A stretch of DNA of 64,000 nucleotides, from the NCBI GenBank assembly GCA_008632985.1, contig QPGO01000034.1:139311-203310 (forward strand), read 5' to 3'. The DNA comes from Psammoneis japonica. Lineage: Eukaryota. A program made the position numbers and the translations under genes. The notes under the pieces are model-generated. The model was not told the origin of the DNA and did not search any database. It saw only the letters and a list, made by a program, of their open reading frames with translations. The first letter of the stretch is position 1, and each line of letters starts with the position of its first letter. Below, piece by piece: positions 20,185 to 53,594 of this stretch.

Positions 20185-20242
20185 AGAAAGGCGCAGATTT
20201 GAGAGTGGTTCGTTTTGTTTTGTATTGTCCTTGTTATCGATG

Positions 20243-20857: not shown

Positions 20858-21061
20858 TATGGCGGTGGTGTTGTGATGAACTCTGTGATGTTGTCACATC
20901 ATCAGACATCTCGCTCTTTCAACTTGTGCATGAGAGAGATTGAAGATGTGAGAAGATGCTATGAGCGATGACACATCCGGACTCCGGACTCCGGACAGAG
21001 AAAATCAAAAAATCGCGCGCTCGCTTTTCGCTTTCAGCTTTGCAAAGCGATCTCAAAATCA

Positions 21062-23205: not shown

Positions 23206-23272
23206 TTCAGCGAGAGTAGATCTCTTACATTAGAAACCACTTAAATTAAACTTGGCTCTCCACATCATCCGT

Positions 23273-24771: not shown

Positions 24772-25099
24772 TATGCTATAAAACAAGAGGACGACGAGAA
24801 GGTGCAGAGCAATCTAAAATCTAAACTGCTGGAGCACAACGCGTAACGGTACCTCCTCCATGTTCGCCGCCAAAACCTGCATCTCGCTCCACTTTTTTCT
24901 CTTTCTGTGTGTCCCGTAGCAGTCCCGTAGAGATACCCATCATTGAATGAAATTAATTCTTGTATAGTTTCATATTCATTTTCATAGTCTTCAGAGATTG
25001 ATATGTTGATAACTCTTTTAGATCTTGCGCGCGGAAAAGCGCGCACCGCATTGGAGAGATCCTTGTTTCCTTTCGCCTTTCGCACAAAACGCTGAAGCA

Positions 25100-28336: not shown

Positions 28337-30488
28337 GAAACCGGCGTGTCTAGTTGGCGTAGCGTCATGAGCGAACGTCCGGAAGTCTTTGTGGTGATCG
28401 ATGCATGAGAGTGTTGAGGGTGGCGGGCTGCGCCTGTTGCCCTCTCATTTCTATTACGTTTTTTCTTTTTTATTATTAAAATTTCCTTTTCAATAGGCAG
28501 TTTTAGTAACGAAATTCAAACCAGCATCTGTCACATAAGAACCCGTTGTTGTCGAAAAAGAATTCCCTGTTTAGTTGCAGATCCTGTTCTGGGTCCATCG
28601 AAATCGCCACTGATTGATGTGTGCCACCGGCTCATGCTTCTCTTCCAAATCCTTGTGTTTTCTCCTGCTTTGTCTTCTGGCAGTTCTGTCACCAGCCCTT
28701 CATTGAAAATCAGGTTTTGCTGGTCGTAAGGAGCAGAAGCCAACTCGTCCTCCCCTTCGTTTTGTGCTGCTGACCCAAGTGACATGGCCAGATTTGAGCT
28801 TCATCACATTCGCCATCACCATGCCAGTGCCAATGCTGCCCTTGCTCTGCTTGTTGTGGTCAACTCTTCATCAAAAAGCCAGCCACCACACCAGGTTGAC
28901 AGAAGAGCCCCCCCTCCCCAGCTGCTGATGACTTTCACACTTTGGATCACAGTCGATGATGCTGTTGCCCTCGAGGATCGTTTCGCTTTCCACAGCACCG
29001 GCAATGCTGTTGCTGATGGCCACCTTGACATGCACTTGATGAAGATTGAGCTTGAGGGAAATGAAAAAGGACTCTTCTGACGATGACGCAGCCGTGGCGC
29101 TGAATTGAACGCCACTGCAGGGCCAGTCCGCCTTGGCAACACGTTCACTCAGCTCCCACCAACCCGCACGTGCAAAGGCATGATCGTCGGCTGCGAAAAA
29201 CGTGTTGCCAACCAGACTGTGACTCCCATGATGGGAGCCAGAGCGAGAGCCGCCACGGTCGCCACAGCAAACAAAGCGCTCAGCAACGCCAACAAACGAA
29301 AGCGAGCAGGGCATTTCATGATGTTTGTGTAAAGAATGAGCAGCTGCAGTTGCAGTTGAGAGTTGTGCACTTCTTGAAAATCGCACCGGAACCAGGATTG
29401 ACAAGAAGTGAACAACAACACACCACGACTCCAAAATGCACTTTGTGCAACAATGCGGGTGCGAACTCGCTTTCCACCGCCAGCCAGTCATCCACAAAAT
29501 GCTCAGAATCGATCTTGTCAACCGTTCTGACGTTGATCGAGTGTCTCAAAAAATTGAGACACGTCATCAAGAATTGGGTGATGGGGCTTTCTGACACATC
29601 AGCATCAAAAGCACTGACACACCGTGCCTTTCATTGACCTTCAACTTCCTAAATGCCATTCGGAACTTCACCCGTCATCTTCGCGAAGTCAGGACCAAAA
29701 TGACACGGATCCACTTGGAATCAAAACCGCATCGAAACTTTGATGGTCAAAAGAGAGAGATGCATTTTCTTGATGTGAAAAGAGTGGTTTTGGCAACCGC
29801 AAAAAACAAGGCACTTGCTCCACTTGTGCACTGGTGGTTTTGCCACTGCCTGTGGTTGGTTGAGAGGCTCCTGTTTTTGCCAAAATGAGGGGCTGTGCTG
29901 CGGGCTCACACCACACATGTGCAACAGAGTTGGAGAGCTCTGGCATGTGTGCTGTGTCACTTCCAGGGCAAACAAGGATGAGTTGGAGTGTCTTGGGACA
30001 CTTCTTGGAAAGATCCAAGAGAAGAAGCCTGCTGGTGGGGTGCCTGTTCCAGCTCCAGGTGATCTGCTTTTCATCACACTAGATTTTCTGCGCAGTTTTC
30101 AGTGCCAGACATTTTTGTCTCCACCCGGCAGAGCTTCCACTTTTTTAATTTTGCAAACATTGATTGTTCAAATGATGCCATGTGTTTGTGATGTTTTGGT
30201 GCTCATCTGCAACAAATGAGGTGCATGTTGCATCACAGGAAGAATCGTGTCAGTTGGCATTTGATGTTTTTCTGCCAATGCGCAGAACAACCCTGACTTC
30301 CATGAACATGTGCCATCCACCCAACACACACACCAGCCACAATGCAGCACACCGCTGTCACCACTCCACAAGAGCCCCCTCTTTGATCTCACTGTTGCAT
30401 GGAACCGTCTGCTCTTTTCATTTCAAAGTTGTGTCATTGTCATCACAATGTGATTGTGGCTCCAAAGAGTTGCTGTTGTTGTGGATGA

Positions 30489-31194
30489 CACCATCTCTTT
30501 GCATTCTCTTGTTTCGAATTTGGCAAGTTGATTTGTCGTGGTTTTTTTTGCACGTCGTGTCTCCGTGCGCATGCATTTTTCTGGTTGCTTCTCACATCTC
30601 ATTTTATGGTTGTTTTTCACCAGGGCCTTCGGAATTTCTGCAAAACTCAAGCATTTGCCCAAACATTCTCCGAACAACAGTTGCTGCTGGAACAAACTTG
30701 TCTTGGTTTGTTTTCACTGTGACGCTTGCTGTTTGCACTTTTCAGCATCTAGAGCTGCCTTGGAGGCTGCCTTCGTGGCAACTGACATTGGCCCCCTCTC
30801 TGGAGTGCATTTGTCGCACAAGCAGGAGCTCACCATCTCTTTGCATTCTCTTGTTTCGAGTTCGGCAAGTTGATTTGTTGTGGGTTTTTTGCACGTCCTG
30901 TCTCCATGCACGTGCATTTTTCTGGTTGCTTCTCATGTCTCATTTTATGGTTGTTTTTCACCAGGGCCTTCGGAATTTCTACAAAACTCAAGCATTTGCC
31001 TGAACATTCTCCGAACAACAGTTGCTGCTGGAACAAACTTGTCTTGGTTTGTTTTCACTGTGATGCTTGCTGTTTGCACTTTCCAGCATCTGGAGCTGCC
31101 TTGAAGGCTGCCTCTGTTCATCCGCATGATGACTTTTGTGGTGACTGACGTCAGCCCCCTCTCTTGAGTGCTGCATTTGTCACACAATCAGGAG
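30489..31194. repeat. Tandem duplication, 342-bp period, two copies
   Basis: caccatctctttgcattctcttgtttcga occurs at 30489 and 30831, and the copies stay collinear for ~340 bp. Confidence 0.95.
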
Positions 31195-31199
31195 TGCAA

Positions 31200-34100
31200 A
31201 AGCAGTGCAATCACCATGGACACATTGGCCAAAGCAGCCTCCCAGCAGTGTCCCATTGGTGGCAGTTCCCTTCAAGCAAATGACAACTCTTCCAGCACAT
31301 TGAAGGTTTCCTTTTGCGTCCAGCATCGCGTCTGGGCACTCGAGGAACATTGCCCGCTGCAGGGCAAAGCCAAAACTTGGCACACTGTGCCTCTCCAAGA
31401 TGCAGTTGATCCCCTTGCATGCCCACAAGGTCTTGTAGATTTGAGCATCTTGACCACGGAAGATCATGAAACCAAGAAGATGAGCCCTCTCTTTTGTGTT
31501 CTTCATCACAAGAATGGTTTCGATGGGTTCAACAGTGTCAAAACACGGAACATGTTCCGCAACACTGTTGTCCATTGGTTTTGTGTGAAACATTCAATGC
31601 TGAGAATCGACCACAACTAAACCAACACATCAAGGACAAGAACCAGCACTCTCTTGATGTTGGCTGTGGCGCCATCAGTGATGTTGATGAGGGACGCCAT
31701 GCAGGACAAGCAAAACATTGCTGCTGTTTTGATGCACCGTGTCAAGACAAACACAGGCCTGCTTGTTGATCACGTCCATGTGACAGAATCTCAGGTTGTG
31801 GAGGTCGGGATGGGTGATGAGAGACAATCAATCATGCCATCAAGTCAAGGCATTTGTCCTTTTTTGTTGGACTTGTCCAAGCCATTTGCTGTGGTGTTGT
31901 CAAGAAGATGGATGCATCATGTCTTCATTGTCAGAAGATGTCGAAGTCTCATCACATGGGAGTGATGGGTTTCGAGGACATCACAGACACCATGAGTGAA
32001 CGTTCTGACCTGGCGGACATCCGCAAGCACTGGGAGTGGGATCATCTCATGCAGAATGACAGAGGCAACACGGTTGCCCTGTGTGCAAAGGAGATGATTG
32101 CTCCAACAATGAGCTCTGCAATTGTTTTGGCATTGCCTCATTCCAGCCCAGAGCATCAGAACGTCACAACAGAGATCTGCAGTGATGAAGACTTTTGGAC
32201 TTCCTGAAGGAGCATGCATTGCTGATCATTCGTGCTTTGCCAAGCACCAATTCCACAAATCATCTTTTGTCAACATTCAAAACCCAGAAACGCACGATCA
32301 TGAAAAGTTGACCAAAGATTTAAGCTCAATGAGTGGCTGCCTTTTGGCAATGTTGTGCACAGAAGTTGGTGGCAAATGAAGTCTCCAAATTTGATGAAGA
32401 GCCATTTTAAATGTTGGCTTTGAAGGGGTTGCATGTCAAGTTCTGCCATGAAATGAGACATCCTGTTTTAACTGCGAAACAGCACTGGGGTTCAATCAGC
32501 AACCATTGCTCTGTTCCAAATGAAATCGCTCAGAGGAAGCAGGTGGACAAAAAGCTGCATCAAAAACCATGCCTCAGCTGTGAGAAGTTGAGGAAGGGCA
32601 ATGTGGATGACAGCGATGATTGTGTTTTTCACAACAAGCATTGCAAAAAGGAGAAGCTTGAACAGTCGGATGATGACATGGAGGAAGATCCCTGCATTGC
32701 CAAACTTCCCACCGACGTAAAATGCAAAGTGCCCACAAGCTGCATGATTGGCTGCCGGAAGGTTTTCTCATTTGGACCATGCAACCCTGGTGAGACACTG
32801 CCATCAGAGGCATTGTTTGACATTGTTGCAGGTTGGTGGTGCAACCACATGTTGCGGATTCCCTCTGGTGGTGAAGACAAAGACTTTAAGCTGCAATGAT
32901 GCTCTGAGTCAGTGGAGGCCGTCATCAAAGACAAGCACATCTTTGAAGTTCACTTCCCTGCCAGACCAAGCAGGAAGGGCTGCTGCAAAGAGCTGCTTGC
33001 TCACCTTGCTGATTGGTGCAAGGCAGCTCCAGGACTTGCATGGCACAAGTTTTGCAGAAGGATTCATTGCCATCGTTGCATGGATCATGCCAGTGTCTGT
33101 GATGCAAGGATGAAGGCAGAGTTGGGGGAGGAAAAGGAAGAGGGGAAGGAGGGCACTGAAGTGGCGGATGACCTGCAAAAGGCTGAGGCTGGCACTGCAA
33201 GGTTTCAACTGTGAGACAAAACCAGGAGGAGCAAGATCAAGGTGGGGCCATGGATGAATCGACTGAGGAAAAGGAGGAAGATGATGGTGTGCGAGACAAA
33301 ATCCAGGAGGAGCAAGGTCAAGGTGGGGCCATGGCTGAATCGACTGAGGACAAGGAGAAGATGATGACCAGGAAGAAGTTGACAAAGCCAAGGGTGCAGA
33401 AGACTCAGCACTTGGAGACACAAAGGCAGAGAAGAGGGAGAGAGTGGGAGAAGCGTGTCACAGACATGATGTGAAGCTCATGAAGAAAGACACAACTGGA
33501 GTGAGCAAGGATGAGGATCTCATTGGCCTTCACAGCTCTGGGCCAAAACCAAAGGCAAAAGGAGCCACTTCATGGCATTGGTTGAGCAAAGAGCAGCGAC
33601 ACCAAGAAGAAAGGGATCAACTTGATTGTGAGTGCAAAGATGCTCAAGTGATGTTGTGGGTTAAAAAACTCACTTGGGTTGATCCAAGTTCATGGAACAG
33701 CAGGCGCCAGCATCCTGGTGATCCAAATTTGCTTTCAAGAAAAAAACGAAGGTGTCATGTTGTGGAAAAAATGGTTTGATGTGCAACACAATGAAATGAA
33801 CGGCCATTCCATGGACATGCATGTGTGGCCCTCATCGCACGTGCCGAACACAAACCAAACGTTCCCATGCAACTCAATCGAAAATGCAGGAACAAGATTA
33901 AGAACAAGGTGCAATCAATTTGCAACCCACCACAGATTGCCAAACTGAAGAGATTGACTGAAGCGGAGATTCAAAAACTTCCACCTGTTGGGCAGGGTGC
34001 TGATTTCATTGGCTGCAGCTTGGAGGGGAACTGTCCCATGTGTGCAACCCCAGATTGGGCTGAGTGCAATTTCAAGTTTCGGTTTCCAGATGTGTGGAAT

Positions 34101-34620
34101 GATTTGAAAGTGTTGAAGCCATTGGATGGTTTTTGCTCCTTGCCAGAAGGAAACGCATTGATGTCATTGAACAGCAACTTGCCGACGAGCGGCCCACCTG
34201 TGAAATTCCTGCAAGGACAAAACGACACTTGCATTTTTTTGTCTGTCCCTGGCCAGTGTTCTTGATTGTGCTGGCGACGTGGAAATGAGAGACTGCATTG
34301 CTTCTCACATTCAAACATCTGCCAACTGTGCCAACGCTGACAACAAGCACATGTTGTTTGCAAAGCACATGTTGAATGGTCATTTGAAGGGAAAATTCCC
34401 ACCTGCAAACTCAAACATTGGGTTTTGCAGCAGTGTGGATTGAACAATTTCCTTGGAAGCAGGTGGTGAATTTGATGTGACGACCTGCAATGATGACTTC
34501 ATAACTTTGTGCCATCTTGTGAACAACCACTGCATTGCCTTGCACCATGGTTGGATCTTTGATTCCAACCACCCTTTTGCATTGCCAGCAAAGGACATCA
34601 AGTGCTTGAATTGGTGAATT
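31200..34620 (+). pseudogene. Decayed large TE-associated ORF ending in a possible papain-fold (C39-like) domain
   Basis: Broken frames with protein-like text, an acidic tract with an ~80-bp tandem repeat (33211-33365), and C-terminal QGQNDTCIFLS...NHCIALHHGWIFDSNHPFALP...LNW. Confidence 0.45.
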
Positions 34621-34649
34621 GGGAACAAGGAACATGAGGTGCAACATGT

Positions 34650-37600
34650 GGCAAAAAAGCATCTGCAACAAGTGTTCATGTTGCACCAGTTTGAACTTCC
34701 AAGGGTGGTGCAGCAGCAGTTGCATGGAAAAAGGAAAGCTTTTGTGTTGGGTGGTTGATCTGGTCACACAATGCAAAGTGACAATCACAGTGTTCGTTCA
34801 TTTTCCCATTGCCATTTTGTTCATCCAACTCATCACTGTCGCTGTCTCCTGCCGCACTCTCATCATCCTCTGCAGTGTCCTCCTTGTTGTCATTCTCTCC
34901 CTCCCACTCATCACGGCCGAGTCACTTTCTCGGCATCATCCATCCCATTTGCAACTCCACATGAACCTGGAGGCACCGCAATCATGTCATGCAATTCAGT
35001 CGCTTCTCGCTGCCGCACCAAGATGCTCGATCCACTGGGACAATGGTCCATGCAAATTTTTGACGGCAAACAAGGGAAACAAGTCATGTTCATCTCGTGC
35101 TGCCATGTGTGCCCCAACAATTCCTTGACCGCAGGTGAAACTGCAGCCTGCGCCCAGCAAGTTAACTTGTTGCGCCAGCAAGGTTGAGCAAGACCCGAGC
35201 CTCGACACGCATTTTGTTGTGATCTCTCCCGGACATTGGAAACATTTCTGGACGATCTGAACTGGGAAGTTGTTTTGTTTGGTGATTTTAACACGGATTT
35301 TCGAAATGACACTGACTCACTGGCCCACTTGGCGATGAGATTCAAGCTCTCCGACGTGATGTGCAACAAAATGCAGGATCTTGAATTCGCCACCCATCTC
35401 CGCGAATCCCGCCGAACTTGATTGTGTCCTTGCCACCTCAGGAGCTCTCCAAGCTGTCACAAAATGCGGTTGTGAATCGTTCGGACATAGAATTTCCTCA
35501 GATCACCATGCCTGCCATGTGGACTTTGACACAGAGTTGTTGTTTGGCAATTCTTCCGCCGCGCTCCCTCGCCCATCCCATCGAACCCTTCTTGCAAAGT
35601 CTTCGAAGCATGTTGCGACTTGCCTCGAAGCCATCGGTCCAATGCTCAAGAGCCGCAATGTGTTAGATCGAAGTGCAGCACTCCTTGCATCTGAAGAGCC
35701 GGACCATGCCCTTGCAGAACGGTTGGACTGCGACATGACACAATTTTGCATCTCCGCAGCCAAACATTGTCGGTGTCATCATGAACCAGAGTGGTCTCAA
35801 AAACTTGTGGACTTGCGCAGCAAAGTCTTCATCCTGTCTCGCCTTCTTTCTATGTTCAAAAACAAGACCACCTTTGTGGAATCGATTGTTCATGAAAAAT
35901 GCAAATTAAAGAAGTCGTTCCTTCTCCCAACTGCTTTGGAGGAATGTCAGAATGCTCTCCAACGTGCCCAGTCCGAATGTAAAAAAGTTGCTCGTGACAG
36001 TCTACATCACCGTGAACGCAAACGTGATGCTCGGATTGCAGAACTAGATCTAGAAGGCACCAAGGCAGCAACTGAAGAGGCAAAGATTCTTTGGAATGTC
36101 AGATGTGCAGAAGAGATGTTGCGAGTGTTCCGAAAAATCAACGCGTTTGAAGATGAGGATGGTTCAAGTGTCAGCAAAGCACAGGTCCCGGCTGATCCTC
36201 TAGAGGATCCCAAGACATGTGAACATTGGGAAACAACAGACGCTCACAAGATGTCGCTGCTGCCCTGACAGCACAGAATCAAAAACATTTTGGACAAGCT
36301 CATGGCACTCCTCCGACCGTTCCTCCTCTGTTGATAGATCCAGGGTACGAAGGCAACACCATCATGGTGGATCTTGTTCTTGACGGCAAGTGTCCCACGT
36401 CCGGATTGACAGAAGCTGCGGCTTTACTGATTGAGCATCTCCGGCGACGAACCCCAGTGTCAGCATCCAATTTCCTCACACCTGAAGAAGCCAGTGGGAA
36501 ATTTAAGTCGTGGACAGAATCCACCTCCACTTCGATCAAGTCCGGTCTTCATTTAGGCCACTTTAAGGCCATGCATTCTAAGCACATGTGTTCTTCAGAA
36601 ACGGATCCACAAGGTGATCCCACCATGAGAAGCACTGAATTGGATGAAGTCCAAGACAGCCTGTGACAGATCCGCTTGAATCTGCTAAACTGCGCACTCA
36701 AATGGGGACATTCTTACGACAGGTGGTGTGACGTGGTCAATGTCATGATCTTCAAAGAGCCAGGCAACAACAAGATCCACCGTCTCCGCGTGATCCACAT
36801 GCATGAAGCGGACTTCCAGTTGATCACCAGTGTGAAATGGCGGGCCCCAGCACAACATGTGGAACAACGCCGATTGTTCAACCCAGGCATCTGCGGTGCT
36901 CAAACTTTCCTGTGTGCTCAGACTCCTGCATTCCTTGAAGTTTTAATGTTGGAGACATCAAGGGTTTCTCGCAAGACGTCAATCACGAGTGATGATGATT
37001 GCACCTCATGTTGCGACAGGAATCTCCCGGTCCTCATGGCGATCACATCAGACAGTTTGGGTGTGGAACCATCAGCAGTGGCTGCAGCAATCAAAACTGT
37101 CCATCTGGCCAGGTGCTGGTTGCTCACCTTGTCAGGTCTCTCTGAGGACTTTTACTCACACAACGCAGAATGCCCCATCTGCGGTGCTGGCCAAGGCAGT
37201 GGCAACTCCCCTTTTTGCTGGAACAACTTGTGCAGCATTCCATTCGATGTCTTCGACTCCAAGGCCAATGGAGCGTTCTTCAAATCACCAGACAGGTCTC
37301 ATCAGCTCAACATCTGCACAAGAGGACACGCAGACGATGCGCCCAAGCAGACGAATGACTTCAGAGCATCACCTCAGCCTTCCGCAGAAGATTTAACTCC
37401 CAAATTGCAGCACAACAACCAACTCTGGTGCGACTTGCTCCACGCTGGCGGACACGAACTGGAACTCCCCAAGTGTTCCTTTCACGCTGTCGATTGGGAC
37501 TTCTCTGAATTTGGTGAGCTGAGCCTCCGACCGTGTGACCAAGACATGTCTGTGGAAATTTTCTCAGCCGATTGCTCCACTTCCAGACACAGCAAGCAGC

Positions 37601-40600
37601 TGTTTCCCTTTGCTCCGCATGAAACACTGGGACACCACCCTTCCCCAGCTGGGACGCCAAAGAAACAGCAACAAGTGCTCCAAGCCAAGAGTGATGGAAA
37701 AGCGTCATTCATTCGGGCTGTCCCTCTAGACCGGACCGAATTGTGGAGATGCCACCATGCATGTCATTTGCCGTCGATGTCTTTTGTTCTTGCTGACTCT
37801 CGCTTTGCTTCCAAAGTGCTGAAACAAATGCAGCAGCGCACTGTGAGAGTCATGTTCGCCAAATGTGGTTGCAACAGGAATGCAAAGTGCTTGATGCCAC
37901 ATGGCCCTCAATCTCTTGGTGGCAGTGGGTTTCATTCTCTTGACATGGAACAGGGAATTGCCCAAATGCAGCAGCTGTTGAAACATTCTCGAGGCGCACA
38001 GCATCTTGTTCAAGATGATCAACCATGCGCTGCAGCTCACATTGCAATTGCATGGAATCAGCTGCATTTGGGCACTGGGGTCAGCTTCCTCAGAGACGTT
38101 GACACTCCTCATCCACATGACCAGTCACTGTGGTTTGCATCAGTTCAGTCTTTTCTGCAGAGCATTGGAGGCTGCATTGCATTGTCCCAAGATGGAGTGC
38201 TCCCCTTGCAGAGAGTCAACAATCAGTTTTTAATGGATGTTGCTCTGGAGTCACAAGAATTCACTTGAGAGAAATCCGATGGATCAATTGTTGCCGCTTG
38301 TGTCTTCGGGTCCTGACAGTCTCAGACATCACTCTGGCAGACGGATGCTTCTTAGACGAATCCAAAGTCTACGGCGATCCCACTTGCCTCAGCAGTGTCA
38401 GTGCCCTCAACAACGTCGAACAGATTGAACCTTGCCACCATGCATGGAGTCCTTGGATGCGGTCATGTGAGTTGTTGTGTCATCAAGACTCAGTTCGTTT
38501 GAAAGCTCCCTTGGGAGACTGGCTCGTGCCCCCTTCTGAAATGAGGATGCAATGTTCAGCGCATTGGTCTCCCAAAGAATCACACCCACACATTCGATCT
38601 CCATCAGGATTTGACATTTTTCCAGTCCAGGACACTGTTGCTGCGTCGCTGCGCCAAATCGAAACGGTTCCCTCCCCCTCTGATTCTTCATTCCCGGTTG
38701 AGATTGTCTCCACAGACGACAGCAGATGGAAACACATTCCTCATTGCCTGAAACTCTTGGTTGAAACAACTTCACCTGCACCTGATCTATTCACAGACCG
38801 CTTGCAAGCATTGCCTCCCTGGGAGTCCTCTCTCTTTTCAGACATTGATTTCCACATTCCCGTTTGTGAACTGATGGACTGTTTTGCATCAAGTCGCCTG
38901 GTTGCGGGCAGCGACGGATCCGCACTTCATCATGATGCAACCTTCGGATGGACGATTGCATTCAATGGCAGACCCTTGGTGGATTGTGCTGGTCCGGTGT
39001 CTGGTCGTTTGCCATCATCCTGTTGAGCTGAGGCTCACGGTTTTCTCTCCCTGATTTGGTTCATCTATCGTCTGATGGAGTTTTGCAAGATGTCAATGTA
39101 TGAAGGTGTCAACAACTGGTGTGACAACAAGGCCTTGGTCTGTGTCCTTTCCAGATTGTCTTCCAGCCACCTGTCCATCAACCCGTCGCCACAAGAGCAT
39201 TCCGACAGAGACTTTTGTCTGTGACAACATGATGCCAATGTTCTTTCATCTGACTGGGATGTTGTCAATGAAATGCACTTAACGCTCAAAGCCATTCCTC
39301 AGGCTCTAAATCCTTCTTCCCCCGGGCAGGCACCATCCACAGCTTGGGCAAAAGGACACCAGGATGGACAAGCTCCAGTGGAGACCCTCCCACTGAATGC
39401 ACAAGTCAATGTACATGCAGATGGGTTGGCAGGAAGATGCCAAGGACAACATGATGCAGACACAATGGAGGTGCTTCCCTTTCCCCATTGTCAATCATGC
39501 CTTTGCCTCACTGATGGAATGGTCACTGCAGGAATGAAATCCATGGTCAGACATGCCACAATGGCTCCTGCTCTCTTGGCATGCATTCGGGAAAGAAACG
39601 ATTGGGATGAATCCATCACAGAAAAGATTGACTGGAAGGTCCATGCAACATTGGTGTGCAGGTGCTCCAAGAAACAAGCATCCACGGTTAAACTCATCCA
39701 CGACCTCCTTCCAACAAACAAGATCACTCATCAGCACAATCCTGTGTGGCCACATCACTGCCTCACGCGCAAACACCCTGTGGAGGATCGCGACCACATT
39801 TTAAGATGCCCTGCCAACGAGGCCTGGCATCGCAAATTCCCACAGGGCGGGCAAAAACACTGTGACAAAATTGACAAAATGCCACCTCTGCACGATCCAC
39901 TGCTGACTTCCCTTGAGACATGGCTGAGAGGTGAGATGCAGCATGAATCAGACATCACCCCAATGCTGCGAATGCCATGGAAAGCCCAGTCAGAAATGGG
40001 ATGGCGACAAGTTTTTAACGGACGGCACTCTGCCCTTTGGAGTGTGTTTCAGGAGATGCATCTTCGTGAGACGGGTCTGTTGGAGAAATGTGGGAAAGAG
40101 AATCGACCTCCTCCAGTGTGGGGAGTGCAGACAGGAACTTGCATTTGGAAGTCCTGGTGGGAACTGTGGGAAGAACACAATCAGGAGGTTCATGGTCATG
40201 ATGCAGATTCAAGGAAATCATCTTTACGACGTCAGGCAGAAGCTGAGCTCACAGCTGTTTGCAACAAAAGACAGGATCATTTGGCCAAAGACAGAGAGGT
40301 GCTGCTGGATTCAGCAGACAACCACATGACCCACTCTACACTGCGGATTGTGAATTGGGTTGCTGTGGTTAAACCACGTCCAAAAGAAAGCCGAAGAAGG
40401 CAAAGCGCGAGGCGCTTTGTGGTGCTCGCTCCATTGCAAGCTATTTTGGATGGGTGTCATCTCATGGTGACGCCCCTTCCAGCTGATCCCAAGAAGCTTC
40501 TGCCACACTTGACGGTGCACTGGAAGTGTGGGTCAGCCGGCGCCCGCTTGGCTGGCAAAGGAGTGACAGCACTTTAAACACAGATCTGGTTTTTTTTTTC

Positions 40601-42200
40601 CTCCCACTCGTCAGTTTTGCTGCTGTTGTGTTCCTCCACCTCGTCCAAACAGCCCTCAAAACAATCCATTGCCTCCCACTGTTGGATGGCATCCAGAATT
40701 CCTTCATGCTCGTCATCCTCAAATGATGTGGATCAAGAAGTGAAGCCTCATTCCTTTTGCATGCACTTGGCAGTTCCAGAGTGGCTGAGGGTTCATTGAG
40801 CTCAATGTTGGCAATTGCAATTTGCTTGAGCAACACTCTTGTCTCACATTCATCAGCATCACCGGGAGTGCACCATCCTCTGGCCCTTGGAACAGGGTTG
40901 AGACATGTTCCCTTGCAATCCCATTCACTGGCCTCAACAGTTGTGGGTGGGTCAAACTCTGTCCACACCTCATCCTCCTGTGCTTTGTGGGGGAGTTCAT
41001 CCCATTGCAGCAGACAAAAGCCCTCCTCAGATTCACAAGACAATGCAGCATGGCTGTTTAGAACAATTTCCTTGGCCATTTCCTCAGTCAGGAAGTCCAA
41101 CACAGATTTGTCAACCAACTGCACCTTGTTGGCGTCACTCTCATCTGTTTGAATCACCTGACACACTTGCCATTGTTCAGCCCCTCAAAATGGGCCACAG
41201 TTTGCAAGCTCAGTTGCCACCTGCATGTTCTGGCTGCTCTGTTGGCTTGACGTGTTTTTCACCCAAGGCCATTTGAGCTCACCCAGGCAGGCTTCACAAG
41301 CACAAGGAATTCTTTGCATGGCAACCCAACCAATGGGGAAAAGAGGTTCAAATTGGAAATGGTGCAAGGCTCTGATGCCACAATGGCGTGTGTGCACTTG
41401 CACCAATCCAGTCAACTTGACTTTGATTAAAGAGCCAAGAACTCCATCAGCTTCCTGCAGACAATGCACCCTTTCTGTTGACTTTTGAAGGGATTCCCTC
41501 TTGGCATGTTTCCTGTTGCCAACTGCACCAAGAGCATTTTTTTCTTTGTGAGCAATTTGCAACATTCCTTGGCATGACTGTGTGCGACTACAATGCCATT
41601 GTCATCCATGACCAAAGCTTCAGGTCCAATTTTCCCATCCTCGTCATTGACTCCTGCAGCAGTTGTGGACTGCATTTCTCAATGCATGAGTGATTCAATG
41701 CAGGCTCCAATGCCATCAACCTTTCCTTTGCCATGTCCAGGTGCTCCAATGGCATGGTCAAACACAATGTTTTGCATTTGTGCATAAACACAGACAACAA
41801 GTGCAGCGCCAAAGCACATCAGCACTGTTTGGCACAACCACAGGTGTGATCCCAAATCACAAGCCATGCCTGACACAGGTTGTGGGATTTTAACCAGATG
41901 ACAAACTTTTCTAAGTGAGCATGGGTGGTGGTGGCATCTTGCTTGCTGAAAGAGTCAGAGAGATGCGCACGATGTGTTTTCTGAAGCACATTGTCAACCA
42001 TGATTGCATCGCAAACTCTTCCTTCAATTGACAATGTTTGGCGTGGGCCCCTTGCTCTTGCAAATGCCAAGAAAATGATGACAGCAAAAGATGGAATGTC
42101 CAGCACACATTGCTGCGCAGCATTGGGCATGCCAGCATTTTTTGCAACAGCCGTCTTCTCAAACAGCCTTGGCGTGCGGCTTTTCGCAGCTCTTGTTCAA
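34650..42200 (-). mobile_element. Degenerate Sola2-like DDD transposase gene interrupted by the LINE
   Basis: Motifs TLSIEG, HLSDSFSKQDATTTHAH, IWDHTCGCAKQC*CA and FDHAIGAPGHGKGKVDGIGA. The acidic C-terminal frame continues across the LINE. Superfamily call rests on the recalled DGC..QY / HGKG..DG.G signature. Confidence 0.65.
34914..40599 (+). mobile_element. 5'-truncated Ambal-like non-LTR retrotransposon (APE endonuclease, RT, RNase H, CCHC) flanked by a 14-bp TSD
   Basis: APE: PGGT, DPLGQWS, LFGDFN, SDHH. RT: MIFKEPGNNKIHRLRVIHMHEAD, TSCCDR, ICGAGQGSGNSP, GHADD. RNase H: GSDGS, SSC*AEAHG, WCDNKAL, AKGHQD. Zinc knuckle: EDRDHILRC. TSD cctcccactc(a/g)tca at 34900-34913 and 40600-40613. Confidence 0.9.
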
Positions 42201-45120
42201 GCAGCCACTGCACACTGACTTCTGGCAGCTTTCAATCAAAGCAACATGCTGCACTGCTGCACATTCTCCTCATGCCAGCTGCACTTTTCTCTTTCTGTGT
42301 CACAGCCTTGCCCAAGTGTTGCCACACTCTGACCTGCGCTGCCTTGCCAAACATGATGAGCAGGAAGACTTTGTTTGTGCAGCAGCACACACACTGAGCA
42401 GGCCAGCAGTCAAGAGCTGAGCAGCAGAGCAGCAACCTTGGTTGGCAGCAAGCCTCTTTTGTGCCCACTTGTGGGAGATTTGAGACAGCATCAACAAAAG
42501 GTGTTGGGTGGAGCGCTGCTGCAGTTTTCTTTGTTTGCCATCATCGCGAGCATCAAATTCTCTCTGCCAAGCAGCACACAGCAATGTTGTGTGGACTGCT
42601 GTCTCTGCTGTTTGGACTGCATTGTGGTTTTTCCACCCTCTCAATCATGGACCAGTTGGTGCCTTGCCTCCCAGCATGAGCACTTGAGCTCAAAATCATC
42701 ATCTTTGCAAAGTTGCAAACAAAATGATGCAAATCAACTTAGAATCAACAGAGTGCATCACAGTCAAGAGAGGCACATCTTGATGAGAGAACAACACCAG
42801 CTCTTTGGCAAAAAAGGGGCAAGACAGCTCACTTGTGTGCCAGCATTTTGCCACTGTCTGTCATTGGGAAGGGTCATTTTCAACAGTGATGCTGCTGGCT
42901 GTTGGCTCCATGCATGAAGGAGAGGGCTTTTGGCATGGTGCACAGCTTCTTTTGAGCTCTTGCAAAAAAAAAGCTGCAAATGGGGCACTGCTCTTTTGCC
43001 AAGAGCAGATCAGAGGGTTTTAGAAGCTCAAGAAGATCATCCTCTGCCAGATGATCATGGCCAAAGTCACGACCAAAATGAAGTGTGGACCAACTCAAAA
43101 TCAACAGATTGCATCATGGCCAAGAGGAGAGGTGCATCTTGACAGGAACAACAGTGGCTTGGCAAAAGAGGAACAAGACAGCCCACTTGTGTGCCAGCAT
43201 TTTGCTGCTGTGTCTGTTTTTGGGGAGGGCCATTTTTGTCAATGAGGCTGCTGGCTCCACACATGAGGGAGAGGGTTTTTGGTGTGGCACACAGCTTCTT
43301 TTGAGCTCTTGCAAAAAGAGGCCTGCATGTGGGGCACTGCTCTTTTGCCAAGAGCAGAGATCAGAGGGTCTTGGAAGCTTGGGAAGATCCCCTGCCAGAT
43401 GACAACAACTTCTTGTGGGACAAATGCAAAAGAAGCCTGAGCTGCAGCAGAGCAGCTTTGGCATCTCTCTCAGCAGCAGCAGCAGCAGCAGCAAAATTGA
43501 AGGGAGGAGATGATGTTTTTACCCCAGCTTGCAAAATGCAAGCAGCACCAAGAGTTGGAAAAATGACGTGGCACAGATTGAGAAGTGAGTGCTGGAGTTG
43601 AGTCAACGTGCCATTCGTGACAAAATGCCATGCCCAAAGTCCAACACATTGCCTTTGAAGGAGCCCTTTGTTGCTGCTTTTTGCAACAACTCAGCATGTC
43701 AACAGCACAACTCCTCATGCTCCCCTGTGTCTCTGGCAGTTCTCAGCAGTGTGGCTGCTGTTCTGTCAAATGCCAACAAAATTGTGATGGCAGCAACAGA
43801 CAGAGTGTCCAGGGCACATTGCTGCACACCATTGGGTGCATTGGCATTTTTTGCACAGACCATCTGCTCAAACCTTGGGAGCTTTTGCAGTTTGTTTTTA
43901 ATTGAAAGCTCTTGCAAACTTGCCCCCAGCTTCCAAAACAAGATGCTGTGCTGCCATGCATTCTCATGCTGCCGCTGTGCTTTTCATTTCCTGTGTTGTG
44001 GCCTTGTTCCAAAATGTTGCCACTCCCTGCCACACCAAACATGGCTGGGCAGACTTTGTTTGTGGCACACACACAAAACAGCCCTCACCCTGCACTGAAC
44101 AGACCAAGGGTCAAGAGCTGAGAGGCAACAGCCACCTTGATGATCAGCAGCAAGCCTCTTTCATTGTTGCTGGTGGGGAGGTTTGACAGCATCAAGGCAA
44201 GGTGTTGGGCCCACTGCACTCTGCTTCTTTGTTTGCCATCATTGCCAGCAGCATTGAGTTTGCTCTGCCAAGCATGCAGAGATGTTTGTGGAGGCCAACT
44301 GCCATCTCTGTTTGGACTGTGTGCTGTGGATTTTGCACCCACCACTCAATGGACCAGACAGTGCCCCCCCCCCCCCCGTGGGTGCTTGAGCTCCGCTTCT
44401 TGAGTGTCATCCAATGTGTTGCCAGGAGAGCAGGCAAACAGCCTCAATTTCCCCAAGTTCCTCAATGTCATCTGACCAGTCCCCAGACAACACTGGGCAA
44501 TGACAAGCTTGCAGCACAGGTGATTCTGGTTGCAGCAGTGTCAAGACTGCCCTGGCAAAGGACACTGGCTCTAAGGTGTTGGTCAAAAATTGCACAAATT
44601 CATCAAAGTTGGCAGCCATGCCCTCATCAAAATTCTGAAACAGGTGCCCCCGAATCCACTGCTGCCATGGCATCAAATGCATCAGAGCACTGAAATGCTG
44701 CTGCCACACCTTGAACATCAGATTCTCTCATCTGCAATGCAGGTGTGCACACAGCACACATGAGGAGTCCATTCAGCACATTGCTGCAGTTTGCCAGCAG
44801 AGGGCAAAGCACAAGTGCACCACATGTTTTGTGTGTTTGGCATTTGTCATTTTTTCATCAGCTGGCACACCATGCAGGCTTGTGTGTTGTGTGAGCACTG
44901 ATGTGCTGCTGCCTCAGTTGCTGCTCTTGCAATGTGCACCTTGGTGTGTGACAGATGACAAAACATCAGATTCTCTCAGCAACAATGTTGGTGCACACAT
45001 GAGTCCTTCGAGCATGTTGCTGCAGTCTGCTGAGGGGGGCAAAGCACAAACATGCCAAAAATTTTGTGCTTGGCGCATGTGCAGCTTTCCATCAGCTGGC
45101 ATGTGTGTGCTTTTGCACCT
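42200..45120. repeat. Cluster of diverged internal duplications
   Basis: ~357-bp tandem pair starting at 42732 and 43089. 42390-42690 resembles 44090-44400, and 44715-44880 resembles 44963-45110. Confidence 0.8.
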
Positions 45121-45819
45121 TCAGCAAGGTCTTCATTGTGGCCATCAGATGATGATGTGCTGTTGCCATTGTTGCACCTGCAATGGAAGAGAAAGTGTCT
45201 TGTCCAAGAACTGGAGTTGGCCCAGCCAGAGTCAATTTGGAGGTGCTGCAAAAGACACCACCAGTCTGCTGTGGAGGGCTCACAGCAGTCATGAACATGC
45301 ACATTGGCAAGGTGCTTGTGCACAGAAGCTTGAGGTCAGCACATGAAGCTCAGCAGCATCTTAAACAGCAATGTGGCAACCAGGTGAGCATCATGAAGTT
45401 TGTCTTGCTGTCACACTGTGGGCAAGAAACAAAAACTGATTTTTGATTCCAAGCCTTCAGATGTTGCCATTTTTCTTCTGTGTGTCTGGCACTGCTGCTT
45501 CAAAACCCAGCATGACTGGCCTGCATGCGGGCAATGCTTCAAGTTGTGATCTGCAGTCAAACATCCTTTCTGACAATCCCACAGGGCATGCTTGCAACAG
45601 AAGGGAGTTCCAGTGTCATGCACCAGTTTGCATGAACAACATTTCTTGGACGTGTCACTCAGCGGCATCCAGTGCAGCATTGTTGGTCATGCCATTTTTG
45701 GTCAGCAAGATGGTCATCTTGAAGAGTGGTTTTAGCAGCATCTTGTGAAATGGGGGGTCAGCACATTGTCTTGGCATGTGGCACTGAAGATTGCTCGGTG
45801 TTTCTTGGTGCTGCTGCAA

Positions 45820-46750
45820 AGGAACAAACCAGTGCCATCTTTCCCACTGAGGATGTCTGGAGCCAATTTGTGAAGATGGGTGCATGCCCCCCTGGGGCAT
45901 TGATGACCAAATCCAGCTGCACAGTGATGCTTGTTCTTGCACAATTCATGAAGTCGCAAACTTCTGAGCGAGGCTTTTGCAAGTTGTCCGCAAGCTTTGC
46001 ACAGCAATCATGCAGAGCATTGCCTTGGCTTCCTTGCCAAGCAGACAATCACATGATGTGACAAATGGTGTGAAGTGACATCATTGGTGAAGACAAGGCT
46101 TGAGATTCTTGCATCTCTTTTGCTCATGATCCGCCAGAACCTGTTCTGGTGTCTTGGGTTGATGTGATGTTGCACCCCACTTCTGGAGCACCAACATCAA
46201 CCACCACATCTGGCTTTTTGCCCCAGATTGCACTCTGGAACAACTGGAATGTTCTTGGAGTTGTCAACAGGATGACAACTTTGCTTGGGTCTGATGTTGT
46301 GCAGAGCAAGAAAGAACTTCTGAGCTGCTTGCTTGAAATTTTCCCGCTGCTGCTGAGTCATCAGCGCACCAAGAGGTGAGTGGGCATTTTGGGGAAATGA
46401 GCACTCATGTCTTGAGCTGGTTGCAGAAGAAGCCCCAGTCCATGTGGCTGCTGCAGTGTCATGCAGCCAACCCCAGCGGATCAACTTGGGCATTGCCACC
46501 TTCCCTGTTGCTGACTGAGCAAGAAGGCCACCTTGCGCCAAAGTGGCTGGGGACAACTGGAATGGCCCAATGATTGCAACAATTGAAAGCAGCAAAAAAT
46601 GGCCAAGCATGTCTCATGTCGTGAGCAACATCAAGGCCCTCCTGCCACTCAGCTCATCATTGAATCCATTGGGTGCATTGATGGGAAAACAGAAAAGTGC
46701 AGTCGTCTTTGAACTTGTGCTGCTCCCTGTTCCCAGAGCACATGCATCGC
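45820..46750 (-). mobile_element. Second, internally deleted CRE-like RLE retrotransposon remnant
   Basis: Fragments PINAPNGFNDE, RHAWP..AFNCCNHWA, REGGNAQVDPLG, KLADNLQKPRSEVC and SRHPQWE(K)DGTGL. Same C-terminus as the 15200-17480 element. Confidence 0.75.
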
Positions 46751-47137
46751 ACAAATGCCTCCTCCTTTGATGCCTGCTGATTTTTGTCTGGCACCAAGAG
46801 CCTCTTTGCTGTGAGAGCCCGATGGGCTGCCGCCCATGGGGGAGATTCGTTGGCTGGCCAGTTTGTGAACATGCATCATGCATGGCGCCTCCCTGAGAGG
46901 CGCACACCTCTTGGCAGTGTTTTTCTTTTTGCACGCGTCTGCGGTTGCCGTAAAGTGTACGTAGGAATTAGTAATAATTTTGAAAGTACCAAGTTCCACG
47001 AATGTTCTACACACGAACACATGGTATTAATTCTACCAAGCTACACAAAAATGATAGTGATTGAGAAATTTAGCAACGGTCACGACACAAACAAAATCTC
47101 TCGGAAAGCGTTTCCTTTCGCGCTCGATTTTCGGTCA

Positions 47138-47429
47138 CAACTCGTCGTCTCGCACGATGTGTTGTTGTTTGCCAAGCCGGAAGCCGCAATCTCCAAGGAT
47201 GGCTCGCCCTTCCTCTGGATTGAGAGCTTGCTCTTGTTTGGCATTCCACAACTCATTTTGCTTGATGGTGTGTTGTCTCTCTTTTTCAACTCGTCGTCTC
47301 GCACGTTGTGTTGTTGTTCGCCAAGCTTGAATGCCGTAATCGCCAAGGATGGCTCGCCCTTCCTCTGGATTGAGCACTCGCTCTTGTTTGGTGCTCCACA
47401 ACTCATTTTGCTTGATAGCGTGTTGTCTC
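47138..47429. repeat. Direct repeat, 150-bp period, two copies
   Basis: caactcgtcgtctcgcacg...ccaaggatggctcgcccttcctctggattgag...gtgttgtctc at 47138 and 47288. Confidence 0.95.
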
Positions 47430-48351
47430 CAATCGGTAGCGTAGGTGTTGCCAGTTAAGTCCGGAGGTCGGGGCAAATCGAATGCGTCTCTCCGGCCTTG
47501 AGTCCATGTCACTCTCGTGTCTTTGAGCGTAGGAAGTTGTCCGTTCACTTGGTCAGTCAAGACCACGGCTGTTGAAACAGACAGTAAGTGTTCATCTGCA
47601 AAGCAGCAAGAGCTTGCCGAGCAGATCATACCGTTGATGGAACGCTGAATCGGGGTTTCGCCGTACCGGTGACACGGTAGCACGGTAAGCCTTCACTCGT
47701 AGGGAGTGAATGGCTTAGCAAGCGGTTGACTTGCAAGTTTTCTTGCTGTCTCCGTATTACGTCCCCCCTTTTTCTTTTTTTTTGGGTGATATTTCACTTT
47801 AAAGATACGAAAAAGCTTGAGCGCCATCTTTTGATGTTGCTCTTGAGGCATCACTACCCTACGCGACCGATTTCTATATCAACTTTTGACATTTGTGTGT
47901 TTCAAATTTTTGAAACACATTTTGAAACTTTTCCAATAGAAGTAGAAAGACTAATAGTACAATATAGCGATCTTTAGTTGCGTATAAGTTATTCCGTACG
48001 TACGTCAATGGACTACGATGACGGTCGTAGCGCTTGCGTTGTTGTTGCGTACTTTGATGTTGTCATTTCTATGTTTTGTACCATACCGCTCTCTTTTTCA
48101 GATGGGTTCCACGATGGGGTATTCGTTACCGGTACGGTATGCCCCGAGATGATATGTTGGCGCTGGTATCGCCTGCACGTTTTTTATGGATTCGTCGTGT
48201 TAGGGAGTTACAAGTGTTCTGCCGAACTGGCGGAGCAACAGAAGAATTTCGATTCTGAAGTAGCTAGCTAGAATACTCCCCAGAGACGAACGAAAAAGAT
48301 TCGAAATTCGTGAGTTTATTGATGTGACGGTACCACATCCTCCACTGGCTT

Positions 48352-50150
48352 TTATAGATATTATTCAATACCTTTCTCAGCTGGACAACAAGTCTCCAAT
48401 CAATGTTCTCGAGCTTGTTTTTGAAGTTGGCCTTGAGCGCATTGACTGATGCACGTGTCGGGGTCGAGTCGAGGCTGTGAGACGAATCAAATGGACGACA
48501 GTATTGAATATTGGGAATTCTTCATTGACAATCATGATGGCCACGGACGAACCCTTGCGAGCGGTCGCTCCTTGCTGTTGCTCTCAATGGAGGTCACTTT
48601 TCCAATGTGTAGTCCTCCCAAGCCTCGGATACACAATGTAGCACCAACTTTGAGAATACCTTCCGCAACTTCAACACCAACAATGATTGGATCCTTTTTG
48701 CTTAAAATGTGTAGAAGCAAATCTATATAATGCTGAGAAACACAGCGGCACTATTAGCTAAAAAGACAAATTAAGTGTGAGTTAATCAAGTACAGACCTG
48801 CAACTACTCGTACGCAGCAAAGCACGCGGATGCGACTTACGCTGCTGCCTCTCCGCTAGTTTGTCCATGAACCCGGTGAACTGATCAACAAGGTGGGGCC
48901 CTAGTAGATAATGTTCGTCACGAAGATTTGGATGCTCATCTCTTTGGCACATTCTCGGGCCTCTCGCTCCATCGTCACATCAAACGTGGCGTACTCGGGA
49001 CAGCCTTTTCCGTTCATAACGGAGACTATCGTCACGTCACGCTTGTGTACCACTCCAACTCCGATAAAACTGACGGCTATCATCGGGTTTGTTCCTTTGC
49101 TCGAGAACCGAAGGAGCACTTTGAGTGCACCCAAGGTTGACGCCTGGACCATTACTCCTTTTTCGTCTGTACTCAACTTGTCATCGAGCTCAATCAAATC
49201 AGACGTGACCTCCGCCTTGATATCTTCCTCTTCGCCATTTTCTCCAACAGTCTAAGAATCGAATGTAGCCAAGATAGTAGACCACAACCGACGAGTCCAA
49301 TGCACAGGACTATCGCCAGCGTACCATATCTTTATGATGCATGTAATCAGACTTGATCCTCATTTCTCGGCGTGGTGGTGGCAACGGCAAGCCTCGCATT
49401 TCAGTAACAATTGGACCATCCAGGGTACAAATCACCTCCCGTACTCGTAGGAGGGTGACCATTCAGCACCAGAGCATCTACAGTCATGCCTACACTTCCA
49501 AATCCGTACGCTGCAAGTTGCCGCACCACATGATTTTTCTTCCATGATTTTCTTCGATAGCTTGCGTTGAGCCATTCCACAAAGTAGCATCGAGACACCT
49601 TGAACTCCCTCTGTAGTCCACGTCACGGCGAGCGGGACAAAGTCAGAATTGGTCCAATCCTCGTCTCCCATTTCCCAGTACAAGTTTGAGTTACCGCCCT
49701 GTTCCTGCAGCTGAACCTTCGCTTCCGTAGAAATTTCTACAGAACACGTAGCATCTGTTCACCTTGTTCAATCCTACAACAAAAGGACAGTGTCGCTTAC
49801 TCTACATGGTGAGACTTTCGATTGTCTGCTGCTACAAACCATGCAGAAGATCGACAGCGAGAATAGCAAGGTCACAAGGGGAAGATCCGCGAGATCGAAG
49901 ATTGGTGAAGGACTCGTGGACTGGTGTATCAATCACAAGCATTCCCGGAAGTTTACTGTCAAACTTTACCGTTTCATTGAGATTGGCAGTTTGATGGCGT
50001 ATAAGAATCGATTGATAAAAGCATGTCGATCACATTCTCTGAGTGAAACTACCAGCTTATTCCGTTTTGCGCTTCATCGCGAGCTCCGGAGACAAGAAAG
50101 GAATATCGAAAAAGCACAACGGGAAAGCTGTGCCCACCATAATCCGAACA
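48352..50150 (-). pseudogene. EIF5B: Translation initiation factor eIF5B pseudogene
   Basis: Fragments [72 protein letters not shown] and DWRLVVQLRKV. Many stops, frameshifts and substituted conserved residues; an intron remnant at ~48750-48840. Confidence 0.85.
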
Positions 50151-53400: not shown

Positions 53401-53594
53401 TGCATGGCGGTGCGCGCCCGCGCAGCGCGCACCCCCCTCACAGTCTGCTATTCCATCCGGCGTATGATACCCCGCCTTGCGTTTTGCGTCGACCGACTCG
53501 ACCGATCTTTATTTATTTTTTTTTTGACGAAGTTACACCGACATACCGGTACAAGAGGCCATGGCCCATACGTACGCATCCAGCCAACTCCACC

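Follow-up and report, generated by a model that had tools for sequence, protein, structure and literature searches.

We analyzed a 64,000-nt stretch of the genome of the diatom Psammoneis japonica (GenBank assembly GCA_008632985.1, contig QPGO01000034.1, positions 139,311 to 203,310 of the forward strand; hereafter the window) and found that seven islands within it have lost nearly all of their TpA dinucleotides and are rich in TpG and CpA, a footprint that is both real and striking. We consider it very probable that these islands are silenced mobile or foreign DNA of the diatom nucleus that has undergone conversion of TpA to TpG or CpA in addition to decay of CpG through 5-methylcytosine (5mC), with a deaminase as the most likely agent. 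A preliminary description of this DNA had stated that no such TpA process was on record. That statement no longer holds, since a 2026 bioRxiv preprint shows de novo mutation of TpA to TpG/CpA in the chlorarachniophyte Bigelowiella natans (Mettrop et al., 10.64898/2026.01.13.699255). In full-text literature, with subscription journals thinly covered, we found TpA hypermutation described in no diatom, nor anywhere else beyond that preprint.

For pooled counts we used the seven islands as originally delimited (29,446 bp) and treated the remaining 34,554 bp of the window as flanks. The islands contained 128 TA, an observed-to-expected ratio (o/e) of 0.07, while the flanks contained 1,404 (o/e 0.59); at the flank density, approximately 1,196 TA would be expected in the islands (Fisher p = 2e-234). 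When the window was scored in 1-kb steps, the TpA o/e was 0.01-0.12 over most island DNA and 0.4-0.87 in the flanks. TG and CA were over-represented in the islands (3,192 and 3,236; o/e 1.74 and 1.76, versus 1.14 in the flanks). Thus both the near absence of TA from TG- and CA-rich islands and the normal TA content of the neighboring DNA were as the preliminary description had reported. CG was also depleted, with 602 in the islands (o/e 0.34) and 1,983 in the flanks (o/e 1.01), and the surplus of about 2,200 TG plus CA balances about 1,000 lost TA plus about 1,200 lost CG. It had been asked whether TA fared any worse than other A/T contexts, and it did: the o/e values of AA, AC, AG and AT were 1.19, 0.90, 1.02 and 0.89 in the islands and 1.15, 0.97, 0.93 and 0.95 in the flanks, which is little change. 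GC content was 49.2% in the islands and 47.7% in the flanks.

The longest run without TA was 1,218 bp (45733-46951; p about 3e-22 per starting position), and the island borders were abrupt. There was no TA across 45733-46950, and the next 120 bp held 14; similarly abrupt edges were found at 1543, 9162, 15322, 17531 and 28507. At four edges the TA-free zone was approximately 100-150 bp longer than the CpG-poor zone (9020-9162, 46820-46951, 15322-15418 and 17384-17531). This overhang, in which CpG density was normal and TA was still absent, is about the length of one nucleosome. We also observed that the 120 bp outside each of 13 edges was TA-rich, with a mean of 7.4 TA versus 4.9 expected per 120 bp, although part of this excess is bias because those windows start at a TA by construction.

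Judging by its sequence, the plus-strand segment 34870-40496, within the largest island, is a single degenerate copy of a single-open-reading-frame (ORF) non-long-terminal-repeat (non-LTR) retrotransposon of the apurinic/apyrimidinic (AP) endonuclease-reverse transcriptase (RT) type, that is, a long interspersed nuclear element (LINE)-like sequence whose frame is broken and whose tyrosines are almost gone. The long plus-strand frames at 35360-40577 gave no Pfam match, yet they had 38 protein relatives. We confirmed 145 relatives by scanning metagenome contigs, and from the best 80 of these loci we took 227 ORFs of at least 150 aa, which produced 272 matches to the window, all of them within 34870-40496. 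The relatives carry one ORF of about 1,900-2,100 aa. One of them, L008, matched Exo_endo_phos at 28.5 bits (cut-off 24.5) and RVT_1 at 22.5 bits, which is under the cut-off of 29.6, and RVT_1 was detected in 3 of 14 alignment members. We class the element as a non-LTR retrotransposon because the single long ORF of L008 has an AP-endonuclease match followed by a weak RVT_1 match. The window copy could be aligned to 1,784 of 2,004 reference residues; it had no Pfam match of its own, and a PDB profile search with the RT alignment returned 0 matches.

To read the codons of this copy, we defined as conserved any column with at least 60% agreement among 31 intact relatives. Tyrosine was retained in only 1 of 29 conserved tyrosine columns, while 379 of 534 columns with other conserved residues were unchanged (Fisher p = 1e-13). 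The tyrosines had been replaced by Cys (TGY) in 14 columns and by His (CAY) in 7, with the remainder occupied by Phe (3), Ile (2), Met (1) and Pro (1). An RT-only alignment gave the same picture, its 13 tyrosine columns containing Tyr once, Cys five times and His four times. Conserved Ile had become Met (ATG) six times and conserved Val had become Ala (GCA) four times, and three of the four Ile to Val changes were preceded by T (T-ATH to T-GTH). The losses of conserved Arg (to Gln seven times, to His four times, and to Cys, Trp and a stop once each, with CGN changed to CAN or TGN in about 13-14 of 44 Arg columns) show the products of CpG decay.

The relatives of this element are not themselves poor in TA, as they would be if the composition were native. 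Tyrosine made up 2.4-5.1% of residues in all 38 protein relatives and 0.4% in the window copy, and all 80 related loci, though from other organisms, had a normal TA o/e of 0.39-0.87. With the 31 intact relatives as reference, the window copy had 40 TA versus 255 expected and 199 CG versus 302 expected. The scarcity of TA is therefore the result of mutation in a formerly normal sequence.

Duplicated sequences recorded the same process. Seven duplicated pairs within islands (2,264 aligned nt, 462 mismatches) contained 50 adjacent CA/TG differences, compared with 2 in the four pairs from outside islands that served as controls (995 nt, 199 mismatches; p = 2e-6). Each such swap is one ancestral TA or CG that was resolved differently in the two copies. 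Copies elsewhere in the genome, recovered as contigs from the public sequencing run X1, swapped likewise at 41594/5, 41597/8, 43372/3 and 44420/1; these are at least four sites, found among 40 of 1,173 differences. The order of TG and CA along the islands was random (runs test, z from -1.5 to +1.2 over all islands), which rules out strand-coordinated tracts. Both strands were affected, site by site.

Depletion of TpA and of CpG was correlated over 57 island bins (rho 0.50), and the two were not equally advanced. Among bins with a CG o/e below 0.2, none of 21 had a TA o/e above 0.2, while 6 of the 44 bins with a TA o/e below 0.1 kept a CG o/e above 0.5. In the LINE copy, the integrated hazard was 2.2 for TpA outside TTAA and 0.42 for CpG, a difference of approximately five-fold. 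TpA loss thus preceded and outpaced CpG decay in the same DNA. Decay of methylated CpG was rejected as the source of the whole signal, given the roughly 1,000 TpA lost besides and the lead of TpA loss. The mass balance, the replacement of Tyr by Cys or His in the LINE copy and the CA/TG swaps between duplicates bear out the earlier proposal of a second, TpA-specific process of A:T to G:C transition beside CpG decay. Two LINE relatives from another organism, L078 and L080, had a CpG o/e of 0.38-0.43 and a TG/CA o/e of 1.47 with a normal TpA o/e of 0.52-0.54; they appear as a natural contrast, with CpG decay and without the TpA process.

The 128 surviving TA were not random with respect to the flanking bases. 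When survival was scored relative to the flanks, it was 0.70 for TTAA (37 sites, spread even through the most saturated stretches), 0.30 for TTAG/CTAA, 0.19 for CTAG, 0.02 for GTAC, 0.02 for ATAC/GTAT and 0.00 for ATAT, which had 0 sites in the islands and 111 in the flanks. All 10 strand-symmetrised contexts were fitted by a multiplicative model of four parameters, one for each base, with integrated hazards of 2.3 for T, 1.9 for C, 0.9 for G and 0.2 for A. A null built from the 31 intact LINE relatives agreed (TTAA, 13 versus 11.0 expected; ATAT, 0 versus 27; ATAA/TTAT, 0 versus 17). CpG survival was nearly context-free (0.26-0.64), and because of this we regard CpG loss as a separate process; from the very different context dependence we infer that one enzyme does not account for both.

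We compared a model in which the base immediately 3' of the mutated A (+1) is decisive with one in which the decisive base lies two positions 5' of it (-2). Predicted and observed 4-mer gains correlated at r = 0.60 under the first and at r = -0.15 under the second, and a uniform 50:50 product model was rejected for its poor fit (r = 0.19 unsymmetrised, 0.36 symmetrised). The tyrosine codons also favored the 3' base, with 14 Cys among 21 where the +1 model expects 15.0 and the -2 model 6.0. On the combined log-likelihood we tentatively conclude that T-A-pyrimidine is the preferred target, T-A-G is intermediate and T-A-A is refractory. A rule by which T-A-Y is hit and TTAA is spared is a concrete and falsifiable fingerprint, which can be used on the published B. 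natans mutations and for enzyme screening.

In the mechanism that we propose, mobile or foreign DNA would arrive and then be subject to two region-restricted transition processes, both ending in TpG/CpA. One would be a near-saturating conversion of TpA to TpG/CpA, acting on either strand independently and on one site at a time; the other would be the ordinary conversion of CpG to TpG/CpA through deamination of 5-methylcytosine. The TpA process would be the same as that seen de novo in B. natans, would act in situ on chromosomal DNA, and may be directed by a silent or methylated chromatin state. What we observed directly is a footprint with a direction, a context rule and sharp domain limits, which copy number, as judged by depth, did not predict. 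As to the chemistry, deamination of the adenine 3' of T by a candidate TadA/ADAT-type enzyme, by analogy with known enzymes, is the likeliest single route, at odds a little under even. A mutagenic base modification is likewise a candidate.

Modified bases in heterochromatin might instead have been miscalled, so that the two strands disagreed and the consensus picked TG or CA. Such a sequencing or assembly artefact would likewise mix TG with CA, form sharply bounded domains and even depend on a motif, and the platforms of the assembly and of run X1 are not on record. X1 was assembled into 31-mer contigs with a word depth of 55-61 on single-copy sequence. Seven near-identical X1 pieces had 0-6 other letters over 481-2,918 nt each, which is hard to obtain from error-prone reads. 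One 2,918-nt contig of depth 61 spans 56052-58963, including 1.3 kb of the seventh island, with 6 other letters and 6 gaps, where a genuine TA/CG sequence would differ at on the order of a hundred sites. Amplified reads showing TA in the islands had been named as a sign of miscalling, and in X1, whatever its platform, the contigs instead reproduce the TA-poor state of that island. In addition, diverged genomic copies hold their own, different TG/CA choices, and the B. natans signature was obtained with Illumina sequencing (10.64898/2026.01.13.699255). We therefore regard an artefact as very improbable. Still less credit is due to the idea that the elements evolved avoidance of TA (and CG), for example against a TA-reading nuclease, with no mutator involved. 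Viruses and phages are known to avoid certain dinucleotides, and most island sequence is without an identified ancestor, but the loss of 28 of 29 conserved tyrosines together with the frame breaks indicates decay rather than adaptation, the relatives are TA-normal, and duplicates resolved the same ancestral sites differently.

The razor-sharp edges, which look as if the affected unit were the inserted element, and the presence of a retroelement in one island part would suit editing before integration, in which RNA or cDNA was hypermutated in ADAR or APOBEC style during retrotransposition and inserted already free of TA. Single-strand editing would give one product, however, and such editing of RNA or cDNA is disfavored because TG and CA are randomly interspersed and the sense frame has Cys and His in a ratio of 14:7. 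AA was untouched, yet ADARs tolerate either A or U on the 5' side of their target. The TA-free zone also exceeds the CpG-poor zone by roughly 100-150 bp at the four edges given above, and in B. natans it is DNA virus sequence already integrated that acquires the mutations de novo (10.64898/2026.01.13.699255), so we consider this explanation quite improbable, if not to the degree of an artefact. The preliminary description had also named error-prone repair of the Pol eta type at WA motifs (W, A or T) in silent chromatin. Pol eta errors give A to G changes at WA, as established for somatic hypermutation, but the suggestion fails on AA, since that half of the WA motif is untouched (o/e 1.19 in islands versus 1.15 in flanks), and Pol eta is characterized neither by so marked an influence of the base that follows A nor by the sparing of TTAA; of all the alternatives we give it the least credence. 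The main rival, which we judge unlikely though well ahead of these others, places the chemistry on thymine: the T in R-T-A (R, purine) would be modified in silent chromatin, for example by oxidation to 5-hydroxymethyluracil or a further derivative, and would mispair with G when the DNA is replicated, to give T to C. TpA is self-complementary, so T to C cannot be told from A to G, and the rule reads equally well as purine-preceded T being hit and TT-A being spared. TpA is a favored site of modified thymines in some protists. To our knowledge, though, there is no modified base that gives near-complete T to C conversion, and the only study of the signature proposes deamination of A, itself without proof (10.64898/2026.01.13.699255).

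Several points weigh against the reading that we prefer, an adenine-centred conversion of silenced diatom DNA. A chemistry centred on T would leave an identical footprint. The composition before mutation is a proxy, taken either from the host flanks or from foreign relatives whose proteins are 32-42% identical. X1 has neither its library type nor its platform on record and may be the assembly's own sample. From survival alone, the key base could be either the one 3' of the mutated A or the one two positions to its 5' side, and the Ile ATA codons, which changed to Met and Thr in a ratio of 6:1, lie further from the +1 model (2.9 Met expected) than from the -2 model (4.1). Finally, Pfam assigned no family at E<=0.1 to 58 of the 67 island ORFs of at least 120 aa (stop to stop, both strands), which leaves most island DNA unclassified. 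The other nine each had one weak Pfam match, below the curated cut-off, and none of these was a transposon domain.

We estimated copy number as summed contig depth in X1 at a likeness threshold of 80%, where single-copy sequence has a depth of about 57. The stretch 52007-53340 in island 6 reached a summed depth of 18,000-26,000, or about 300-450 times single copy, and 40001-42001 in island 5 reached approximately 30-50 times. However, 47338-48004, with a summed depth of about 3,800 (approximately 65 times), had a TA o/e of 0.71 and a CG o/e of 1.08, and 56009-57342 in island 7, at the single-copy depth of about 60, had 0.17 and 0.24. Depth thus fails to track depletion, although old copies may lie below the 80% threshold. 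The designation of the islands as repeats stands for the high- and mid-copy stretches 52007-53340 and 40001-42001; it does not stand for single-copy 56009-57342, and only one pair of islands shares sequence. Nor do the data support a restriction of depletion to repeats, since the 65-fold stretch is normal and a single-copy island is depleted. We infer that silenced or foreign DNA describes the targets better than repeats.

Two observations concern the repeats themselves. The approximately 65-fold stretch extends over 46671-48004 and includes a 150-bp tandem repeat (47138-47429) with normal TA and CG, which is also covered by a second run, X2; it is multi-copy sequence spared by both mutation processes. 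In island 6, many X1 contigs start or stop within 52472-52662, including 21 loose ends at 52502, so that this is probably the edge of the repeat unit present in about 300-450 copies.

The islands differed in extent and in degree of depletion. Island 1 (1-1542) continues past the start of the window and has 2 TA (o/e 0.02) and a CG o/e of 0.11; its last inner TA is at 1136, and TA is dense again from 1543. Island 2 (6390-9161; TA o/e 0.03, CG o/e 0.11) has five leftover TAs, all five in TTAA, TTAG or CTAA, and at its right edge CG density is back at 9020 and TA not until 9162. Island 3 (11175-12738) is weaker, with a TA o/e of 0.16 and a CG o/e of 0.68. An inverted duplication at 11828-12817, 67% self-complementary over about 1 kb, could give a hairpin or double-stranded RNA there and is a possible silencing trigger. 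Island 4 (15323-17530; TA o/e 0.05, CG o/e 0.20) belongs to the only pair of islands with common sequence inside the window, 15443-15781 matching 45814-46157 over 340 bp at 66% identity.

Island 5, the main island at 18.4 kb (28508-46950), has 75 TA (o/e 0.06), a CG o/e of 0.36 and a TG/CA o/e of 1.7. It is a mosaic of the LINE copy, the mid-copy repeats at 40001-42001 and unclassified sequence, and depletion covers 12.8 kb of it beyond the LINE copy. Two plus-strand tandem duplicates lie within it: a 341-bp unit at 30489-31194, with CA/TG swaps as well as CG/TG and CG/CA pairs between the copies, and a unit of about 350 bp at 42708-43402, with 10 CA/TG swaps per 332 aligned nt. Island 6 (51606-53448) has a TA o/e of 0.07 and a CG o/e of 0.53. 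Island 7 (55747-57402), single copy by depth, is weaker, at 0.16 and 0.30. Islands without TAA and TAG are left with TGA as the sole stop, so that most of their long ORFs are probably spurious and form a trap for gene callers; by a rough estimate, chance would produce about as many as the few ORFs near 240 aa under these conditions. Scans of the window for tRNAs and with Rfam each found 0.

Outside the islands, a Vps26 exon (59942-60685) was closest, among named matches, to diatom sequences with 72-79% identity (Asterionellopsis-type MMETSP, Pseudo-nitzschia, Bacillariaceae and Epithemia), and a TruA-like ORF had named matches only in diatoms, at about 40%, in agreement with an initial guess that the host is a diatom. 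There was no near-identical protein in the collection searched, for which reason the host is not B. natans. Run X2, the kind of which is unrecorded, covers gene regions and skips segments of 94-119 nt with GT..AG or CT..AC ends (49583-49678, 59375-59470 and 55179-55299). These skips resemble splicing, so X2 looks transcript-derived. Most island bins were without X2 cover, and there was none on 40001-44669, 52007-53340 or 56009-57342, a result that we did not use as evidence of silence. Another ORF beyond the islands, of 627 aa at 1807-3690, encodes a repetitive protein with no Pfam family; its tandem repeats have units of 249 bp (88% matches) and 93 bp (84% matches).

What was known already is TpA hypermutation in B. 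natans; what is new here is a lineage in a second supergroup, transposon targets, the coexistence with CpG decay and precedence over it, and a three-base specificity. A saturated footprint in a diatom adds a second lineage that is ecologically dominant and genetically tractable, and it argues for a widespread eukaryotic defence opposite in direction to fungal repeat-induced point mutation (RIP) and running against the usual GC to AT mutation bias. As a conjecture that we would not yet call probable, diatoms may possess a defence in which chromatin directs DNA base editing to silenced mobile DNA; it would convert T-A-Y to T-G-Y on either strand, spare TTAA and run about five-fold ahead of 5mC decay. 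Given that a rhizarian alga shows the same TpA signature, the defence would amount to a "reverse RIP", either ancient or evolved more than once, across the stramenopile-alveolate-rhizarian (SAR) group, carried out by an adenine deaminase that can act on double strands with three-base specificity. A natural DNA adenine editor, if true, would be relevant to base-editing research. Hypermutated elements are stripped of all TAA and TAG stops and of almost every Tyr; they therefore show spurious long ORFs and are missed by Pfam, and the transposon content of such genomes is probably under-annotated.

Fungal RIP changes CpA to TpA with an AT-rich outcome; it attacks C, needs duplication and a sexual cycle, and is tied to cytosine methylation and silencing. 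The diatom footprint resembles RIP of ascomycetes in its regional transition hypermutation, its irreversible ruin of mobile DNA and its sharp borders. It is unlike RIP in that TpA is destroyed and CpA/TpG made, in that A or T is attacked, and in that GC content barely moves. Depth in the diatom islands also did not predict depletion, in contrast to the need of RIP for duplication, with the reservation that old copies may escape the 80% threshold. In animals, ADAR hyperediting and APOBEC3 restriction of retroelements target RNA or single-stranded cDNA, and the signatures that result are partial and biased to one strand. Like the diatom process, if that is the work of a deaminase, they disable mobile or viral nucleic acids by mutation, and they differ from it in that here both strands are hit equally, the change is almost complete and non-retroelement DNA is included.

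Native TadA and ADAT act on A34, always after U33, and the natural substrate of these enzymes, unlike that of the diatom process, is the tRNA anticodon loop. The likeness to TadA and ADAT2-ADAT3 lies in deamination of an A directly 3' of U or T, and the 'YAC' preference given for a TadA-derived editor in a review (PMC13109818) resembles the T-A-pyrimidine rule. Methylation of transposable elements in diatoms depends on DNMT5a (Hoguin et al. 2023, PMC9998398). Decay of 5mC would account for the CpG half of the island signal, with little flanking dependence, if, as the sequence suggests, the islands are methylated; removal of TpA, which was faster and more complete than CpG loss, sets the diatom islands apart from it.

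The closest known system is that of B. natans, as set out in the preprint (10.64898/2026.01.13.699255). In mutation-accumulation lines, 231 of 302 nuclear mutations fell in two integrated viral regions, and 230 of these 231 were A to G or T to C, every one of them at TpA; the viral DNA that was hit is integrated and silent. The regional rate was about 1,000-fold that of the rest of the genome, with hypermutation in some lines only. The B. natans genome has 124 TpA-poor clusters rich in CpA and TpG, the TpA-poor coding sequences are enriched in reverse-transcriptase and endonuclease-RT domains, and an ADAT2-like deaminase was proposed without proof. From the published figures (211 mutations, 6,169 TpA, 3,132 generations) we calculate a rate of about 1e-5 per TpA per generation and a half-life of about 63,000 generations; because of this half-life, and by analogy, saturation such as that in the diatom islands would be reached quickly.

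The two systems have in common a change to TpG/CpA that among A-containing dinucleotides is confined to TpA, its action on both strands, its targeting of discrete, apparently silent, foreign or mobile DNA, and clusters that are poor in TpA and rich in CpA/TpG. In neither need the target be repeated, since the main B. natans region is single copy and island 7 is single copy yet depleted. The confinement is also alike, with seven sharply bounded islands, including LINE-like and multi-copy parts, against normal flanks in the diatom. The hosts, however, are a stramenopile here and a rhizarian there, and the identified diatom target is a LINE-like element plus repeats rather than viral inserts. The diatom islands are near saturation, with a TA o/e of 0.02-0.1, where the giant-virus region of B. 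natans stands at a Rho of 0.45. The diatom footprint overlies CpG decay, and the flanking rule with TTAA sparing was derived here; the words 'CpG', 'context' and 'TTAA' do not occur in the main text of the preprint. The B. natans mutations were measured de novo, and the diatom case is known from its accumulated footprint.

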